Source: Octopus sinensis
Lineage: Eukaryota
Length of the DNA: 64,000 nucleotides
Direction: 5' to 3'
NCBI RefSeq assembly: GCF_006345805.1
Contig: NC_042998.1
Location: forward strand, 145,824,001-145,888,000
The notes beneath the pieces were generated by a model that was not told where the DNA came from, ran no database searches, and saw only the letters and a list, made by a program, of their open reading frames with translations. Position numbers and translations under genes: made by a program. Shown here in pieces: positions 3,426 to 53,045 of the stretch; the stretch's first letter is position 1; every line of letters starts with the position of its first letter.

Positions 3426-3926
3426 TCAATAAAGAAAAAGAAGAAGAAGAAGAAGAAGAAGAAGAAGAGGATGAGGAGGGGGAGGGGAAGGAGTAGGAAG
3501 GGGAGGGGAAAGGAGGGGAGGGGGAGGGGAAGGAGGAGGAAGGGGAGGGGAAGAGGAGGAGGAGGAGGAGAAGAAGAAGAAGAAGAAGAACAAGAAGAAG
3601 AAGAAGAAGAAAAGAAGAAGAAGAAGAAGAAGAATATAGTGATTAGAAGCGAAATACTGCCATGTCTAGCAGACAAGATTTCCAGTACTGAAGAGACGCA
3701 GAAATAACTCGAACCCAGGCTGGTCTGCTGGTCCTGTCGCTAAAAAGTGGTAAGAGTTCGCTTCCCTGCTCGCAATATATCGGATGCTGCTGTACATCGC
3801 TGTAAAGTCCATTCGAATGGAACAACGAAGTTGAAGTGGCTATGAAGACTACTTGCTAGTACAACTACTGCGTTCATCTCCTAGAGAGATATTAGAACTA
3901 GCTATATGTACGTATATATATGTGCG

Positions 3927-4002
<76 letters not shown>

Positions 4003-4015
4003 CGTGTGTATGTAC

Positions 4016-4055
<40 letters not shown>

Positions 4056-4129
4056 GAAATTTACAAAAAGCAAAAGACGAAGACAAGTGTGTAAACAACA
4101 AACAGGTGTATAAGCTCGGGGAGGTGAGA

Positions 4130-5914: not shown

Positions 5915-7165
5915 CAGAAATATCGAAAATGTTGGTTTCAAATTTTGGAATAATGCCAGCAAGTTCGGGTGGAGGGGATAAATCGATTACATCGACCCCA
6001 GACTTCAACTGATACTTATTTTATCGTCCCTAAAAGGATGAAAGGTAAAATCGACCTCGGTAAGATTTGAACTCAGAACATAAAGACGGAAGAAATGCAG
6101 CTTAGCATTTTGACTAGTGAGCTAACGATTCTGCTATTTCGCCACCTTAAATATGGAAGAATATTCTTTTCTACTCTAGGAACAAGACCAAAAATTTTAG
6201 GGGAAGGGCCAGTCGATTAGATCGTAGACCCCAGTATGCAACTGGTACTTAATTTCTCGACCCCGAAAGGATGAAAGGCAAAGCCGACATCGGCGGTGCT
6301 CAAACTCAGAACGTAAAGACAGACGAAATACCTATTTCTTTACTACCTACAAGGGGCTATACACAGAGGGGACAAACAAGGGCGTACAAACGGATTAAGT
6401 CGATTACATCGACCCCAGTGTGTAACTGGTACTTAATTTATCGACCCCGAAAGGATGAAGGATAAAGTCGACCTCGGCGAAATTTGAACTCAGAACATAA
6501 CGGCAGAAGAAATACCGCTAAGCATTTCGCCCGGCGTGGTAACGTTTCTACCAGCTCGCCGCCTTAATACCGAAGAATATTCTTTTCTACTCTAGGCACA
6601 AAGCCAGAAATTTTGGGGGAAGCAGTCAGTCGAGTAGATCGACCTAGTATGCAACGGGTACTTAATTTATCAACCCCGAAAGGATGAAAGGCGAAGTAGA
6701 CCTCGGCGGAATTTGAACTCAGAAGGTAAAGACAGACGAAATGCCTATTTCTTTACTACCCACAAGGTGCTAAATACAGAGAGGACAAACAAGGACAGAC
6801 AAACGGATTAAGTCGATTATATCGACCCCAGTGCGTAACTGGTTCTTATTTAATCGACCCCGAAAGGATGAAAGGCAAAGTCGACCTCGGCGGAATTTGA
6901 ACTATGAACGTAGCGGCAGACGAAATACTTATTTCTTTACTACCCACAAGGGGCTAAACACAGATAGGACAAACAAGGACAGACAAACGGATTAAGTCGA
7001 TTATATCGACCCCAGTGCGTAACTGGTACTTAATTTATCGACCCCGAAAGGATGAAAGGCAAAGTCGACCTCGGCGGAATTTGAACTCAGAACGCAACGG
7101 CAGACGAAATACCGCTAAGCATTTCGCCCGACGTGCTAACATTTCTGCCAGATCACCGCCTTAAT
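5915..7165 (-). mobile_element. Head-to-tail array of six SINE family A units
   Basis: Six copies of GACCCCAG..TACTT..ATCGACCCCGAAAGGATGAAAGG..CGACCTCGGCGG..TTTGAACTCAGAAC; minus-strand A-box-like TGGCAGAAATG and B-box GTTCAAATTCC. Confidence 0.9.
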
Positions 7166-18515: not shown

Positions 18516-18517
18516 AG

Positions 18518-18549
<32 letters not shown>

Positions 18550-19503
18550 TCTAAGTCCACAAAAAACTATATCTGGTTTGTTATACCTTTCGGAAAACAA
18601 ATCAAATCGAACCTTCCTTTACAGTTCCGTGAAGCAGTGGCTATGAACTTTCCCAGGAATTCTATGTATTATTCTATTATCAATTCACATAAGGTAAGAA
18701 TTGCATTCTCTAACACTAGAAATCTATCGCAAATTATTGCTTCCCATAATAACAAGCTGCTAAACAAAGATTCTTCACCCGGGAGTTCTAACACTATTCT
18801 TAACAATTCCAACCAAACATACAATAATAATAATAGAAATAATATTGATAGTACCAACATTCGTAGCAACATTAATGTTAGCAATGATAATATTAATAAT
18901 AGAATTAGTCGGGTTAATAACAGTGGTAGTATTGATGACAACAACAACAACAACATTTCTATTATCAGTGATAATGCCGGTTATAGTACAATTAATAATA
19001 ATAACAATAAAAGAAATAGTCTAGTAGTTAATGCTAGCAATAATATAAACAGTAATCATAACAATAAAAACTCCATCTTGATCTCGGAGGATAACCCTAA
19101 CAGATTAGACTTCTTGTCCAATAATTCCAAAATTAAAAATTCCATTTACCAGTATAAAATTTCTTACGGTACCGATGTCTTCTTTTATATTGGTGCGACA
19201 ACTTCTCCATTGTCCCAGAGAATTTCCAACCATTATTCAACTTTCCGAGATAAGAGAAAACAACATAGTACAGGACTAAGTAAATCAGTTTGGCGTCTTA
19301 AGGACAACAATATAACTTTCAAGCTGGATTGGTCCATATTATCTGTATCCTTTCCTTTTGATGAGGGCAGGAAATATTGTTGCATCTGTAATTCTGAACT
19401 CTTCTATATACTTTTCGCCAAATTCCCCTTGGTAAACACAATAATAGAAAAATCCTATAGATGTAAACATTGGCAAAAACATACCTTCCACTCATATAAA
19501 TAA
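18550..19503 (+). CDS. Penelope-like element ORF, C-terminal part: RT-linker + Asn-rich insert + GIY-YIG endonuclease (5'-truncated)
   Basis: Open frame from 18550: IWFVIPF..NFP..KVRIAFSNTRNLSQIIASHN; SIYQY...FYIGAT...QRISNHYSTF..STGLSKSVW..WSIL..CCICNSE..RCKH. Confidence 0.85.
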   Translation, partial: SKSTKNYIWFVIPFGKQIKSNLPLQFREAVAMNFPRNSMYYSIINSHKVRIAFSNTRNLSQIIASHNNKLLNKDSSPGSSNTILNNSNQTYNNNNRNNIDSTNIRSNINVSNDNINNRISRVNNSGSIDDNNNNNISIISDNAGYSTINNNNNKRNSLVVNASNNINSNHNNKNSILISEDNPNRLDFLSNNSKIKNSIYQYKISYGTDVFFYIGATTSPLSQRISNHYSTFRDKRKQHSTGLSKSVWRLKDNNITFKLDWSILSVSFPFDEGRKYCCICNSELFYILFAKFPLVNTIIEKSYRCKHWQKHTFHSYK

Positions 19504-27649: not shown

Positions 27650-27885
27650 TATTTCTTTATTACCCCGAGGGGGCTAAACATAGAGAGAACAAACAAGGAC
27701 AGACAAAGGGATTAAGTCGATTACATCGACCCCAGTGCATAACTGGTACTTATTTAATCGACCTATGAAAGGATGAAAGGCAATGTCGAACTCGGAGGAA
27801 TTTGAACTCAGAACGTAACGACAGACGAAATACTGCTGAGCATTTCGTTCAGCTCGCTAACAATTCTGCCAGTACGCCGCCTTTA
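27650..27885 (-). mobile_element. SINE family A, full length
   Basis: Matches unit 6930-7165 end to end. Confidence 0.85.
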
Positions 27886-28261
27886 TATCTATATCTATTT
27901 ATTTATACACACACACACACCACACATACATACATACATATATATATATATATAATATATATATATATATAATATTATATATAGATATATATATATATAT
28001 ATATATAATATATATATAACAATTAAGGATAACTTCTTAATAAGGAATCTTAACAAGAAATTATCAGGTAGATAGCGTGAAAAACCTCATAAGAGAAAAA
28101 TTTCGAAAATAATTCTTTCTTATTGAACATATTAATTTATATATAGAGGGCATTATTACACATACATGCCACACGCTAAGAGGGACATTAGTCATTTCTA
28201 CCAAAAAATTTTACTAATCATACCCAATGCAATTTTTCAAAGCAAGACATTTAAAAAATGA

Positions 28262-28331
28262 ATTTAGTCTTGTATCACCTGTGATTTCGTACTTACCGCA
28301 GTTGCGACCGTACTCATCAGCAAGACTGATT
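28262..28331 (-). ncRNA. Type I hammerhead ribozyme, fully canonical
   Basis: Minus: AGTCTTG-CTGATGA-GTAC-(17 nt)-GTAC-GAAA-TCACAGGTG-ATA-CAAGACT; 7-bp stem I, 4-bp stem II, 5-bp stem III, AUA site (cut after 28273). Confidence 0.93.
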
Positions 28332-29109
28332 CTGAACATATCATAAATAAACGACCTCGCACGGTGGCCCGTTGTGTTTTTGAGCTAAAACACTTCATTT
28401 CATGTTGCTTTGCAAATGAAAGAGTGACAGAGACGTTGGCATGTCGGTAAAAATACTTTACGATATATTTTCCGGCTCTCAGCATTCCGAGTTCAAATTC
28501 CACCTGCTTAAAGAAGGCAACTGGAAACCACACTAGTATTCATCCGAAGTCTAGTCAAAGTAGTCGAAGTTCCAGTCACCTACTTAACGGCGGCGGGGAA
28601 GGATGCAGATCCCCCCAGGTTGTATAGAGAGTGCTAGAGAAGGCTCACGTGCAGGATCTGCTCAAGAGCAGACCACCACTAGACAAGAGTCCGAGATACT
28701 CAGATCAAGAAGGAAAAACAAGATCGTCGTAGCTTAGACTCGGATCTGGTTTATGGGCTAATAATGAATACAGCACGCTTTGATTTGTGTACCTGAGTAC
28801 TGAAACAATGTGTGACTATACATTCATTTATGTAATATATTCTATTATTCATGAATATGTATAAAGTATATAAATATATAGATAACATACATAATATATG
28901 CATGTATGGCGATATAATATATGTAGATAACATATAATATATGTTTGTACTGACGCAGTGTATCCGGAACTAATTTATTCAATGTGCGACCCCATACAAT
29001 TTTTTCAAAATCATAAGGTATGATTTGAGAGAATTTTGTCTAATATTTCAAGTGGGTGTGTTTATCATGTAGAGAATCGAGCTTGCGTTGCCACATGTCT
29101 GTGTATGTA

Positions 29110-29599: not shown

Positions 29600-30871
29600 T
29601 TTTATAGAGATGTTTCTTTATTGCCACACAGGGCTGCACACAGATAGAACAAATTACAAGGTAGAGCTTTTCTTTTGAAGGTTTAAAAAAAAATTAAAAA
29701 AAAAAAAAAAAAAAAGGAAGGGGGAGTTTCGATCAAAAGGATCGTAAAAGGAGAGAAAGAGGCACAAAAAAGGGGGGGTTAAAAAAAAAAAAAAAAGGGG
29801 AGAGGAAAAAAAAATTGATCAATAGGATCGTTATCACAGAAATGTCAATATGAAGTGTAAAGGGGAGGACAGGTGAGGTTTACCCGTGGAAAGAAAAGCC
29901 TACGGAAAAGACCACGGTAACCTCGGTCAATGAAGTCACATTATATTTCTTTTTTTTTTTTTTTTTTTTTTTTTTGCAAATAAGCAACTCTCTGTTTTCG
30001 ATTTCTGGGTTCATTAGGACTATGCGCAAGGTGGCTTCGTCATTCATACGTGCCATTCTTGCTACATTCACCCATCTTTTTTTAAAAAACATTCGCTAGA
30101 CAAAACTTGCCTCTCTACTCTCACTTTCCTTTTCAAGTGGTACTTGAAGAAGTTGATGAGATTGACCAGAGAGGAAAGTGTTTGTCTCCAATCCTTTCAG
30201 ACGCTCACCAGATACATTCTTTCGCCATAGCCACAAGGATGATGAAAATAGCTCTTCCTTCCCGTTTGAAGGAAGGAGGCGTGACAATATTGACGATAGA
30301 CTCAGCTGATAAACCGACTCGTCCCACGTGACAGCAGTTGTTCGACATAAGCCCACAGGTCGGAAATTGTTGGACCACTGACGAGTGCGTGCAGAACGGT
30401 TTCGTCGCTCTGACCGCATCTCGGGCAGGTCGGCCCCGTGTTTCTCGAGCCGTGTCTGTAGAGCTTATCCCGAACGGGTAGCGCTTCTCGGTAGCACTGC
30501 CAGGCCAGGGATCTCTCGAAGTTGGTCCATGGGCCCTGGCCCGAAAGTCGTCCCGAACAGGCGGTCAGGTACTCCTCGTCGACGTCCAGTTTCGCCCCAA
30601 GCTCGTCGTCGTACCTCCCCTCCACTAAACCCCTATAGAATGCTTTGGGTGTGTTGAAGTCACTTAAGGTCGACCCAGGACGGCAGAGTTGCTTGAGAGC
30701 AACGCGACACTCGTGGTGCCATTCGCCTTCCTCGGCCTCTTTTTGATCCACGACTGCAGTTCGGTCATGGAGACGAGCTGGCGGAAAGCGTGCCTCACAA
30801 ACGGCGACCACACCTGTTCACCGTCGTCTACATAGAGCCAGAGATGTCGCAGTCTCAGCGCGTGTCTGCGC

Positions 30872-39374: not shown

Positions 39375-41694
39375 CAGTGATTCTCAACTTTTTCCTGGCC
39401 ATCGCCCCCCTAAAAGCTATTTTGACATAAGCTAATTGATAATCGCCCACCAAAGAATGATAACAAATATTAAATGTAATGTAATTACGACTAATCATGA
39501 CTAAAAAATTTTGTCCATGTAAATGCAAAAGAAAAACGAATTAAAATAAAACTTTAGTCTAAAATTAAATGTAGAAAATGACTAATTAGTGTGAGCCCTG
39601 AGATTGGTGATGTTCCGCTAAAAATTCAATGTCAGGCTTAACGCTACTCAAACAGATACGAATGTCTCCACGTGAAATATTGTCAAATCTGTTTCTTTCC
39701 TTCCGAAAAATGTGATTGACAGTACTAAATCCAGTTTCGACAAGATATGATGTCGGAAAACACAAAAGGATTTTCGACATTCGTGACCACAAAATTGGAT
39801 ATAGGGATTTTACAACACTTGATTGCCAACATTCAGACAATCTTTCTTTTTTTTTTAATTTAATTTGAAATTCATCATTACATTTCATCTCGATGACTTC
39901 CTCCAGGATATTTTCGTGCGCACTGTGAGGATCACAATCGAATGGGTCAACCATCCATGGCTGATTATTGAAGTTAAATAAATCGGCAAATCTGGTTTCC
40001 AAATCATTTTTCAAGGCAGACAGATGGTCACAATAAATATTAATGTCATTTTCACATAAGTCGATTTCCGCTAGTTCGGGCATATCATGAAACTGTCTTA
40101 ATCTTAAATTAACCCGTTTGCAGTCTATCAGCGTTATCATTTTTCCTTGCAGCAGAAGAGAGACCTCATTCAGCTTACAGAAAACCCAACTAAGATAGTG
40201 TATGTGCTTTTGAGCTTGAATTTCGGCGGCTAAGTTTGAGTGTCCTTCTGTTCGTAAAAAATACAACTATTGTATTAAATAAGTTTACAAATCTTTCCAA
40301 GCAGTTGCCTTTGGATAGCCAACGGACATCGGTATGCAAAAAAAAGTCTTATACATTGTTCGTCAGCATCGACACAAAATTTTCGAATGTTAGATTTCAT
40401 TTTGTTTATTGTTTTTATAAGTGTTCAATAACTGGTTTAGAATGGGGCTTATATTTTTGGCCAAGAGGTTATGTCTGTATAGTACACAGTGTATAACTAG
40501 AATTTGGGGGCACAACTTTTTTAAATGAGAGATAAGTCCTTTGTGTCTCCCAACCATAAACATTGCACCATCAGTAGCACATGAAACTAAATTTTCACAT
40601 GGAATTTCTTCTTCTTCAAAAAACGTTTTCGATGCAGAAAATATAGAAGCACCCATTGTGTCAGTCTCCAACAGTTTTACAAATAACAAATCTTCTTGTA
40701 ATGCACAGTTTCTATCAAAGATATCGTACATATTCCATTAAAAGGGCCTTATTGACAACAACTGTGCTTTCGTCAATTTGAATAGAGAAATTCGTTGTTT
40801 TCAATCTTTGAATTCGTACGTCTTCGATATGACTTGACATTTCATCAATTCTCCCACGGATAGAATCATTACTCAAAGGTAGAGTTTTAATGATAGATGA
40901 AGGATCTTGATTCATAACTTCTGATATTACTGCTTCTACTGTAGGTATAATAATATTTTCAGCCACTGTATGTGCACTACCTGTTTTTGCAATAATTTCT
41001 GCAATTGTGTAGGGAGCAATCAGTCCACTGTCAATAATTTTTGTCTGTTTCTTGAATAATGATTTAACAGTACTTCGATTTTCAAAATCAGTTTTCAAGC
41101 CCTCAAAATATTTGATAGGCTTACCGACTTTTTCGGATGTTTTCTTCTCATGTGGTCAGAGAGCCGAGAGGGTTTCATGGCTTCATTGGACAAAGATTAA
41201 TGACACATGATACAAAAGGGCTACTTTGGGTCCGTAGAGTTCTTGATAAAACTATATTATAAGTACTCATCGATATACTGTCGACACTTCTTTTTCGCCG
41301 AGCCTGCCATAAAAAAAGTGGGTGAGAACGAATGCAAATTAGTAAACTGCGTCCGACGGTTAAGAGAGAGAACGTCAAATTCAATCAAGTTGCCGTGTAT
41401 TCAATGAATTACGCAGCCCGGCGGCCAGTGTCATAGTAACAAGGGTAAGAAATTTAGTGATGAATGAGTCATTATAAATCGATGAACTAAATCTTGGAAG
41501 ATAACGCACATATTGAGGCGCATAGTTACTGTATTTGATTTTGGAAAAAGAGCTGGTTTTACAGATTGACTGCAGTTATTGAGAAGAGCCCTTGTCATGA
41601 TGCACTGACTGGGTACGTGATTGCTTGTTGTGAGTACAGTCACCGATCGAAGACTGAATTCATCGCCACCCAAAATTTGATTTGAGAACCATTG
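39375..41694 (-). mobile_element. Full-length hAT transposon, Buster/Charlie group
   Basis: TIRs CAGTGATTCTCAA / CAATGGTTCTCAA; perfect 8-bp TSD ATGTAGAA at 39367-39374 and 41695-41702 with the nnnTAnnn Buster pattern. Confidence 0.95.
39586..41310 (-). pseudogene. hAT-Buster transposase pseudogene (ZBED5/SCAND3/FAM200-like family)
   Basis: MAGSAKKKCRQY..BED-like CIMC..SNEAMKPSRL; LSNDSI..RI, FSIQIDEST, CATDGA, IHCVLYRHNL, FPTSYLVETGFS, QSQGSH end; several stops and frameshifts. Confidence 0.92.
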
Positions 41695-50478: not shown

Positions 50479-51204
50479 GTGGTGATGATGGTGATGATGA
50501 TGATGAGGATGATGATGAAGAGGAGGGGTGGGGTGGCGGAGGGGGAGGGGGAGGAGGGGAGGGGAGGAGGGGAGGAGGGGGAGGAGGAGGAGGAGGAGGA
50601 TATCATAACGAGGAGAAAGAAGAAATAAAAGAAGGAAGGAGAAGGAATGTAGGCTTGTAGACATGTGAAACCAAATACAAGACAAAAGATTTATGAAATA
50701 AATTCAAAAACTAAAATTGAATAAATTGAAAAAAATAGATATGAATTCAAAATAGAAATTTTTAGAGAGAAAAATAACTTGAAACAATTTCACTTAGAAG
50801 GAAAGGTTAGCAAAAATCTTTATGAATTTAGTAACGACAAAAAAAAACTAAAATATCATACACATTTAGAAAACATTCAAAACTAAATATATTGATTCAA
50901 ACAGTGGAGAGTTTGGAGACGTTGCTTACTAGGTTATGGCAGACAAGGATGGCAAGAAAGTAAAACTTCAAACTAAACAAAAAAATTGCAGCAAAGCTGC
51001 ATGTTAGTGGTATCAGACGTGGCATGCAGACCATCATATAACTTGTTCTATTCTTCTCTTCCGTTTTATTTTGACATGCGCATTACGTTTTATTATTCTC
51101 TTCCGTTTTATGAATTCAGTGTGCACATGTGCATTGTGTGTTCATATTTCTCTTTCCGGTCCTACTCAAAACTGTTTACAGATCACAACAATCTCACGAA
51201 CTTA

Positions 51205-53045
51205 ACGAAGAGTTGAAAATTTTGGCCAAGGTACTAGCAAAAAGGTTGGCGCGTGTCGCGGGTGGTCTCATCGGGGAGGCGCAAACTTGCACCATTCCCG
51301 GCAGGACTATCCAGGACAATCTCCACTTTTTACGCTATGCCTTAGCGAGGGTAAATAGGCTTCCTGGCAAGGGTGGAGCTTTGATCCATTTTGACCAATC
51401 TAAAGCCTTTGACAGGGTTGACCATAGGTACCTGGTGCCAGTCCTCGTAGCGGTCGGATTTGGATCATTGATTTATACAGCAACATCGATCGATCGTTCG
51501 GGTGAACTGTTTCTTCTCGAAGCTGTTCTGCATCAAGCGTTGGATGCGTCAAGGATGTCCACTATCCTCACTTCTGTATATGTTGGCTCTGGAGCCTTTA
51601 CTGCGGAAGTTGGAGGATATGAGGGACGTCCCGCATGATCTCGATTGCGGTAAGATCGGTTACGGCGTATGCGGATGACATCACCATCATCATGTCCGAG
51701 GTGGACAACCTACAGAGGATAGGTGAGGTCATCAAGGAGTACGTGGCTGTGGCAGGGGCAAAATTTAACCAGGATAAATCAGTCGGCTTGCAACGCGGTA
51801 CCTGGAGTGGCAAATCGATACCTCCTAACAATATCGTCGGGCGTTGGACGGAGGGGCCAGTTAAATTTCTTGGAGTTTGGTTAGGTCCGGATCTCTGGAT
51901 AGAGAAGAATTAAAGCGAGGTGGTGAGCAGGGTGACCAACTTAACTCAGACCTGATCTGAGCGGTTGCAATCCCTGAAAGGGAAGGCGGAGATCGCAAAT
52001 GTGTTTATCGCACCTGTGATTACCTACCGCCTGACCGTCCTGTCTTGTCCCGATTCGTGGCTAAGCAAGGCGGAACGATTGCTCTTCCGCTTTTTGTGAA
52101 GGGGCAGGAGTCCACTTGTAAGGCGCTCTATCTGCTGCCAACAGCTGCTAAAGGGTGGGTTAGGGATGCCGTGGCTAATGATGCGCAGGCATGCACTGAG
52201 GCATCTCTGGCTCTACCTGGATGGTGAACGGATGTGGTCTCCGTTCTTCAAACTGATCCTTCCTAGGTTCGTTAGTTTCGATGAATTGGAACCGAGGATT
52301 AAGCATAGACCAAAGTTGGGCGCGTGGCAAGCCGAATGTCGGCAGGCACTCGCACTTCTCTGCCGGATGGGTAATGCCGGTGGCGAGGGTTCCACCTCAT
52401 CATTCTATAGAGGGCTGGTAGAGGCAAAGTGTGACGATGATCTGGGGGAAGCCTTGGGCTTCGACGAAGGTCAGCTTGTTGGTTTGTTCTGAAGGACATT
52501 TGGGCCGGAGACTTTGGACAACTTCCAAAGGTCTCTGGCTTGGCAATGTGAGCGAGGAGTCTTACCAGTTCGAGATAAACTCGCTAGGCACGGCTATTCA
52601 TGCCAGCCCACTTTCTCAAGATATGAGTAGAGCAGTGAAACTGTTCTGTACCCTATTGTACAGTGTCCAAAAATTACGGAACTGTGGGTACTCGTCGAAC
52701 GACTGCTGTCACGTCTGGGAAGAGTACGGCTCTCTTCCGAGTCGATTATTAAGATTGTTTCCCTCATCCTCCTTCAATAAGGAAGGCAAGGTGTGTTTTT
52801 TCGCTCTGGTAGCATTGGCGAAAGAGGTTGTATGGCGGACGAGAATGAGAGGAGTGGCGACGGGTGCCTTCATCTCCGGCCCTCCGTTGTAAAACAAAGG
52901 AAACAGAAAGGTTCAGTGGTGGATCTGGGTTTGTGGGGTCGAATCCGTCCCCCACTCCGTTGTGACGTGTTTTGTATTGTATTGTATTTCATTCGATTAT
53001 ATAATAAGTCAAATTTTTAAATTCGATTTTAATGTCTGATCATTC
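51205..53045 (+). mobile_element. Tx1-like LINE, 5'-truncated ORF2 pseudogene with 3'UTR
   Basis: KILAKVLAKRL, IPGRTIQDN, DQSKAFDRVDH, AYADD, KFLGVW, C-terminal region homologous to 29600-30872; AATAAA at ~53068. Confidence 0.92.

Follow-up and report, generated by a model that had tools for sequence, protein, structure and literature searches.

Non-LTR retrozymes of Metazoa were described in 2020 (Cervera & de la Pena, PMC7229834), with units of 350-390 bp in mussel, 220-245 bp in coral and 330/350 bp in axolotl, and a recent preprint has tied retrozymes to Penelope-like elements (Li, Clavereau & Pollet 2026, 10.64898/2026.07.22.740005). Canonical metazoan hammerhead motifs have a stem III of 1-2 bp according to PMC4209133. 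The octopus repeat family reported here agrees with the known class of metazoan non-LTR retrozymes in the features that could be tested: a short non-coding tandem unit that has a GC content below 50% and a single canonical type I hammerhead, a copy number in the thousands with solo to multimer forms, and a predicted circle that is strongly self-paired. It differs from the described retrozymes in its longer unit (449-487 nt), in a stem III of 4-5 bp per side around a centre of 0-2 nt, and in a loop 2 that carries an inserted hairpin in several subfamilies; it is known here from DNA alone, in contrast to the circRNA of retrozymes. The consulted sections of PMC7229834 contain no description of the (TA)n targeting, the inversions or the two fixed 3' ends found in octopus.

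The octopus family also resembles the retrozymes of Li, Clavereau and Pollet, in that Neptune-type elements co-occur with it and solo 'monomer' copies appear as the offspring of tandem masters. Their link was based on co-occurrence and pseudo-LTR (pLTR) homology, chiefly in vertebrates; the groups named in the consulted part of the preprint include no mollusc. Ours is based on insertion anatomy, no homologous pLTR having been found in the two families compared. With the pLTRs of Penelope-like elements, as presented in the consulted parts of PMC4209133 and PMC8557442, the unit shares type I topology, a palindromic helix III, partial tandems and an inverted 5'-truncated arm, and with the elements themselves an extra tail at one end and a preference for (TA)n like that of Neptune, Naiad and Hydra (PMC8557442). 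Unlike these pLTRs, the octopus unit lacks an ORF and carries a ribozyme that goes beyond the minimal form, with a C3-G8 core, a helix I of 6 bp and nucleotides for the loop-loop contact; its one-sided extension is ~120 nt, compared with 30-40 in Penelope-like elements. Finally, as in amphibian satellite-2 and the axolotl double hammerhead (PMC7229834), the unit is a tandem repeat in which helix III may form between neighbours. Helix III is 1-2 bp in those repeats, whereas a 4-bp monomer hairpin is possible in the octopus unit, and the dimer dependence of the latter may therefore be weaker.

The locus studied lies in a 64-kb stretch of Octopus sinensis DNA (the window), in which the motif at 28260..28332 on the minus strand is a true type I hammerhead with every core residue present. 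Read directly, the minus strand gives AGUCUUG CUGAUGA GUAC-(17 nt)-GUAC GAA AUCAC-AG-GUGAU A / CAAGACU, where the slash marks the predicted cut. The features of the locus are as follows.

28012..28362, minus strand: 5'-truncated solo copy of a ~479-bp non-coding tandem unit (unit positions ~396-479 followed by 1-267), from identity to other copies
27926..28018, no strand assigned: (TA)n microsatellite at the element 3' end, the likely insertion target, from repeat composition
28260..28332, minus strand: type I hammerhead including loop 1 and distal stem I (GAAU 28332-28329 / AUUC 28263-28260), from sequence, pattern search, folding and Rfam alignment
28326-28321, minus strand: stem I 5' strand GUCUUG, with A at 28327
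28314..28320, minus strand: core CUGAUGA (C3-A9), from sequence
28313-28310 / 28292-28289, minus strand: stem II GUAC/GUAC, 4 bp, with G10.1-C11.1, from sequence and folding
inside 28289..28313, minus strand: loop 2, 17 nt with an inner hairpin, last base A (28293), from sequence and folding
28288-28286, minus strand: GAA, from sequence
28285-28274, minus strand: near-palindromic stem III AUCAC-AG-GUGAU, from sequence and folding
28273, minus strand: A17, with predicted cleavage between 28273 and 28272
28272-28267, minus strand: stem I 3' strand CAAGAC, from sequence
28266, minus strand: U1.7, predicted partner of the last loop-2 A (A with U1.7 in 79 of 91 distinct hammerhead sequences)
28243..28248, minus strand: second GUCUUG downstream of the cut, predicted from folding to compete for the stem I 3' strand

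The initial annotation had reported every core nucleotide, and this was confirmed both by the minus-strand reading and by a pattern search, in which the motif was the sole strict match in the 64-kb window, with no strict match in 40 block-shuffled windows. The core CUGANGA / GAAA / UH, helices I-III and an open helix I are all those of type I. Its further description as 'fully canonical' holds for the core and fails against the Rfam model: RF00163 (Hammerhead_1) aligned over the full length with 17.4 bits, below the gathering score of 34, and a scan of the whole window at the gathering threshold returned no matches. A short GUAA-loop form exists within the window copy's own subfamily (locus L080), and this sister copy scored 18.6 bits against the same model. 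The 'minimal forms elsewhere' to which the motif had been contrasted are not found nearby, since the pattern search gave no other convincing hammerhead, minimal or not, within the window; shorter forms do occur in sister subfamilies elsewhere in the genome. A second candidate at window position 2462 was weak, with a 4-bp stem I and a stem III that was impossible or short, and was rejected.

Several details of the secondary structure could be refined. The 4-bp stem II, the AUA triplet with its cut at 28273/28272 and the donor-like CG/GUAAGU (GT at 28296-28295) all lie where they had been placed, and a compensated stem II variant, GCAU/GUGC, was present in seven of the matches listed. The proposed 5-bp stem III with an AG loop does not stand: an intramolecular hairpin loop requires at least 3 nt, so a 2-nt loop cannot close, and within one molecule stem III consists of 4 bp around CAGG. 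Six of the seven base pairs assigned to stem I belong to the canonical helix I, while the seventh A-U position more probably belongs to loop 1 and supplies the tertiary-contact U1.7. In known hammerheads, as covered in PMC2632901, U1.7 pairs with the last A of loop 2, and both the loop-1 5' U and the loop-2 3' A for this tertiary pair are present in the window copy.

The TA-anchored element that had been placed around the motif was likewise recovered, as a copy spanning ~28012-28362 whose 5' junction falls at 28356-28365 and which runs into the TA repeat at its 3' end. For bases 28020-28365, many loci show 94-99% identity, and many copies 98-99%. The copy comprises ~350 bp of the unit, with ~84-93 nt upstream and ~260 nt downstream of the cut. 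With only one hammerhead it cannot release a unit-length RNA or a circle, and the insertion is most likely inert, able at best to nick slowly a minus-strand RNA that passes through it. By the criterion of the preprint, in the part consulted, a single-hammerhead copy is an inactive monomer derivative (10.64898/2026.07.22.740005).

Assembled contigs from four runs, which we guess to be RNA, match parts of the element, and the flank at 28424-28797 is represented in one run; among the contig pieces listed, none joins the element to its flank and none has a joint at the donor-like site. The predicted cut is crossed by one contig, and four contigs from two studies end 3-4 nt short of it, at 28268-28269. 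Because 28268/28269 is also the point of divergence from a sister subfamily, an assembly branch explains these ends equally well, and as contigs cannot show ends or strand, we discounted them as a sign of cleavage.

Other mobile-element sequences surround the copy. Just outside its 5' junction, at 28371-28406, is a short piece of another abundant repeat with high contig depth and loose ends on both sides. A 5'-truncated Penelope-type fragment at 18517-19503 (plus strand) starts in a TA run and has at least 150 relatives in the genome; it carries a GIY-YIG-like domain and, by eye, a C-terminal CxxC...C-H motif, and gave no Pfam match. Broken LINE-type RT pieces, a zf-RVT piece and hAT-transposase-like frames were seen at 51114-51910 (plus), 30305-30817 (minus) and 39589-41155 (minus). 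Tandem and dispersed copies of a ~184-bp SINE-like repeat, which we take to be a common octopus SINE, lie at 5979-7113 and 27710-27880.

In the 2.72 Gb of genome searched for copies, exact hammerhead patterns returned 2,571 and 3,373 matches, as against 0 and 4 for the reversed controls. The window copy's subfamily, searched with a 3' half pattern, gave 114 matches, and an older subfamily 250 (control, 6). The unit is 479 bp in neighbouring copies, and 33 distinct natural monomers, each delimited by two cut sites, were 449-487 nt long with 32-34% GC. The family has one type I hammerhead per short tandem unit, the window copy being a truncated solo, and arrays reach 12 hammerheads in 6.8 kb (locus L118). 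The unit is non-coding, its longest stop-free stretch being 54 aa; no tRNA gene or tRNA-derived head was found in four loci, and no ORF with RT and GIY-YIG lay between repeats in the loci whose frames were listed. As circles, six of six monomers were predicted to fold far better than shuffled sequences (z -4.4 to -8.1).

Conservation was assessed in 91 distinct hammerhead sequences parsed from sampled loci; because copies are related, the counts do not represent independent events. In stem I, pairs 1-5 are maintained in 88, 85, 84, 90 and 77 of the 91, each with several pair types (among pairs 1-4, G-C/A-U and U-A/C-G swaps), whereas pair 6 (2.6-1.6) holds in only 56 and is C-C in the older subfamily. 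Similarly, stem II pairs 2-4 hold in 89, 90 and 88 sequences, and pair 10.1-11.1 in only 51, being often U-U, a mismatch at stem II pair 1 that was also seen in one axolotl motif (PMC7229834). All four bases occur at N7 across the family. N17 is A, C or U and never G, including in 34 rows from a search with N17 free; most pattern searches fixed it at A. Judged from these substitutions, the ribozyme is under selection at the family level, its helices covarying across subfamilies.

The last loop-2 base is A together with U1.7 in 79 of the 91 sequences. In a subfamily with loop 2 AGAG instead of GUAA (L073-L078, L109-L117, L119-L120), position 1.7 is C in 68 and U in 32 of 100 matches listed (hand count), and a GUAA-type loop with C1.7 occurs once in the genome. 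Loop-2 G with C1.7 is a suggestive candidate for natural covariation of the loop-loop pair, representing a single evolutionary event. An older, more decayed sister subfamily (L181-L210, L151-L180) has a long hairpin inserted in loop 2 and C, A, G or U at N7. A different short hammerhead-bearing repeat, with stem III AUCA-AU-UGAU, was noticed at L211:~3994-4110 and L212:~3952-4068 (both minus strand); it had no BLAST match to the 479-bp unit.

The analysis directly established the motif and its copy number, the existence of tandem and inverted arrays, 3' ends that are fixed and sit on (TA)n, covariation of the helices and the absence of an ORF. We consider it probable that the hammerhead in the window, an intact one of type I, sits in a 5'-truncated solo copy of a non-LTR retrozyme with units of 450-490 bp, a non-autonomous Penelope-like element; the ribozyme of this family is predicted to process tandem transcripts into units, probably best as a two-copy fold. 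The main competing explanation accepts the same element and holds that the ribozyme is efficient as a monomer, the solo copy cutting read-through minus-strand RNA co-transcriptionally by means of its 4-bp stem III and the contact between U1.7 and the loop-2 A. We regard this as a real but minority possibility. In its favour, G10.1-C11.1, a 6-bp helix I, the loop-1 U, the penultimate pyrimidine and the loop-2 terminal A are all present (compare PMC2632901, as consulted), the 4-bp stem III is longer than that of canonical metazoan motifs (1-2 bp, PMC4209133), and in vitro cleavage has been reported for the retrozyme monomers of coral and mussel (PMC7229834; review PMC7761336), at ~0.8 and ~0.1 per min, respectively (PMC7229834). 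Against it, the AUA triplet gave slower cleavage than the three others compared in the ELVd hammerhead (PMC1636495, in the part consulted), and the hairpin inserted in loop 2 might hinder docking.

Predicted folding energies also bear on the two explanations. The stem III hairpin alone has +0.4 kcal/mol, whereas the same 12 nt reach -11.2 kcal/mol as a two-copy symmetric duplex, and for the ten commonest stem III forms the duplex lies at -7 to -16 and the hairpin at +0.4 to +4.8 kcal/mol; any short-looped hairpin can dimerise. In the predicted minimum fold, the core UGAU pairs with the AUCA of stem III, 2.1-2.7 kcal/mol below the active fold, and the predicted probability of the active fold is at most ~0.01. 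The gap is ~2.2 kcal/mol until ~26 nt past the cut, a difference that tertiary contacts could close, and widens to 5.5 kcal/mol when the RNA reaches 30 nt past the cut, owing to the second GUCUUG 25-30 nt downstream; nearest-neighbour energies leave out the tertiary contact and Mg2+. For a natural tandem pair, in which one hammerhead has a stem I mutation, the double-hammerhead fold is 7.7 kcal/mol better than two monomers (-156.0 versus -148.3), and the unconstrained fold, at -160.8, is better than both.

The variation of stem III points in the same direction as the duplex energies. Between AUCA and UGAU the centre is UA, AU, nothing, CAUG, CUAG, UG, C-x-G or CAGG across subfamilies, such that the duplex is nearly always kept, with at most a 1-2-nt central mismatch; self-complementarity of the centre is retained also in sister subfamilies whose monomer stem would be limited to 2-3 bp. 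In the older subfamily, stem III is a perfect palindrome in 59 of 100 matches listed (hand count), the patterns having fixed the outer 4 bp of stem III, so that self-complementarity was tested for the centre only. In our estimate, a dimer would probably be clearly faster than a monomer, and the chance that the solo window motif cleaves detectably is slightly better than even. Monomer activity, as had been proposed at the outset, is plausible to that degree, whereas the argument from a stable stem III to a monomer is not supported, given the +0.4 kcal/mol of the hairpin. In Xenopus, one of nine dimer retrozymes cleaved in vitro (10.64898/2026.07.22.740005).

The retrozyme interpretation was further examined through insertion anatomy, for which the first 30 subfamily matches in genome order were taken, leaving 25 distinct insertions after the removal of five duplicates. 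In all 25 the 3' end falls at unit position 136-152 or 258-268, while the 5' ends vary, and 14 of them contain an inverted arm. Nine of these 14 pair one short with one long 3' end (hand count); none has two ends of one class, and the other five have one irregular or gapped end. A (TA)4 stretch stands beside 34 of 39 outer 3' ends, compared with 6% of window tiles. At short ends, part of this count comes from the TATATATA that the unit itself carries near position 135, which probably serves as microhomology. All the marks of Penelope-type insertion are therefore present, namely partial tandems, 5' truncation, an inverted arm, a one-sided tail and a microsatellite target, and the same marks, together with a (TA)n preference, are described for Penelope-like elements in PMC8557442, whose supplement includes Naiad and Hydra families of Octopus that target (TA)n. 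At L003:964-1366, the inversion junction lies exactly inside the stem III palindrome, which suggests fold-back template switching at that palindrome.

A young, abundant Neptune-like Penelope element was found in the same genome, with a 784-aa open frame encoding RT, a CxxxxCxxC linker and GIY-YIG (L138:496-2847; also L140 and L143). Its terminal repeat contains a minimal hammerhead with a U3-A8 core swap (L138 ~3535-3580), directly preceded by a pyrimidine-rich tract ending in CAG; a similar intron end has been reported next to the Penelope hammerhead of Drosophila virilis (PMC4209133). This family could supply the enzymes for the unit. No sequence was shared between the unit and either the Neptune-like family or the older family of the GIY-YIG fragment in the window (29 and 30 loci), the single match in the comparison being a separate nearby unit copy; since neither of the two Penelope-type families tested shares sequence with the unit, no specific autonomous partner was assigned. 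A lead from loose-end contigs to an autonomous partner gave only the older sister subfamily.

The same anatomy would be expected if the unit were a detached pseudo-LTR of an unsampled autonomous Penelope-like element, its tandems and inversions arising from truncated insertions of that element and no free circular RNA being made. The insertions do have the form of Penelope-like elements (PMC8557442), 24 of 57 Xenopus retrozyme families matched known transposons, with 21 of 22 matches to Penelope-like elements (10.64898/2026.07.22.740005, in the part consulted), and the comparison above covered only two of several Penelope-type families, Hydra and Naiad lying outside it. This origin is nevertheless improbable, as in the loci with listed frames neither an RT nor an endonuclease frame runs unbroken into the unit, the only RT lying next to it (L016/L031) is part of an unrelated family that has a hammerhead itself, and the unit forms pure arrays of up to 12 hammerheads whose monomers are predicted to fold as compact circles. 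Co-option of the window copy to regulate a host gene, by cutting pre-mRNA or supplying a splice donor, is highly improbable despite the intact core and the perfect GUAAGU hexamer, because no host-gene Pfam match was found among 143 window ORF stretches (137 of at least 62 aa and six others; short exons would escape), their matches being to mobile elements or weak low-complexity only, because the hexamer consists of the loop 2 end plus stem II and is missing in several subfamilies, and because the near-identity of the copy to many others means that its intactness reflects youth.

For the retrozyme that we favour, all steps from read-through transcription to insertion are modelled on the known class. 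A tandem array would be transcribed by read-through, and every hammerhead in the RNA would cut co-transcriptionally, a single helix being formed by the stem III palindromes of two neighbours. A host ligase would then join each unit into a ~480-nt circle, and reverse transcription over more than one unit length, followed by insertion into (TA)n, would be carried out by a Penelope-type RT and GIY-YIG endonuclease acting in trans. No paper describing this family was found in the literature searched; Repbase, Dfam and the supplement of PMC7229834, which lay outside the search, may catalogue it.

The locus is thus likely a new example of a retrozyme family and not a gene switch, and by itself it matters little, being one of thousands of insertions. 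A bolder reading, which we offer tentatively, is that these repeats form one cephalopod retrozyme superfamily that records its own mechanism. Every inverted insertion would then consist of one short and one long fixed 3' end ~120 nt apart, the footprint of Penelope-type RT start and resolution on a circular template; the hammerhead would act as a counting switch, locked in solo copies and circles by pairing between core and stem III and unlocked only by a neighbour's palindromic helix; and one subfamily would have swapped the conserved A-U loop-loop pair for G-C. How animal retrozymes move is currently argued from co-occurrence and pLTR similarity. A young family with clear Penelope-type footprints and two fixed 3' ends offers testable contrasts for the origin of the one-sided 'tail', and its natural variants (loop-2 insertions, 0-2-nt stem III centres and the A-U to G-C tertiary change) offer contrasts between monomer and dimer cleavage. 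The paired fixed ends, the dimer-preserving stem III centres and the possible tertiary-pair swap are therefore worth following.
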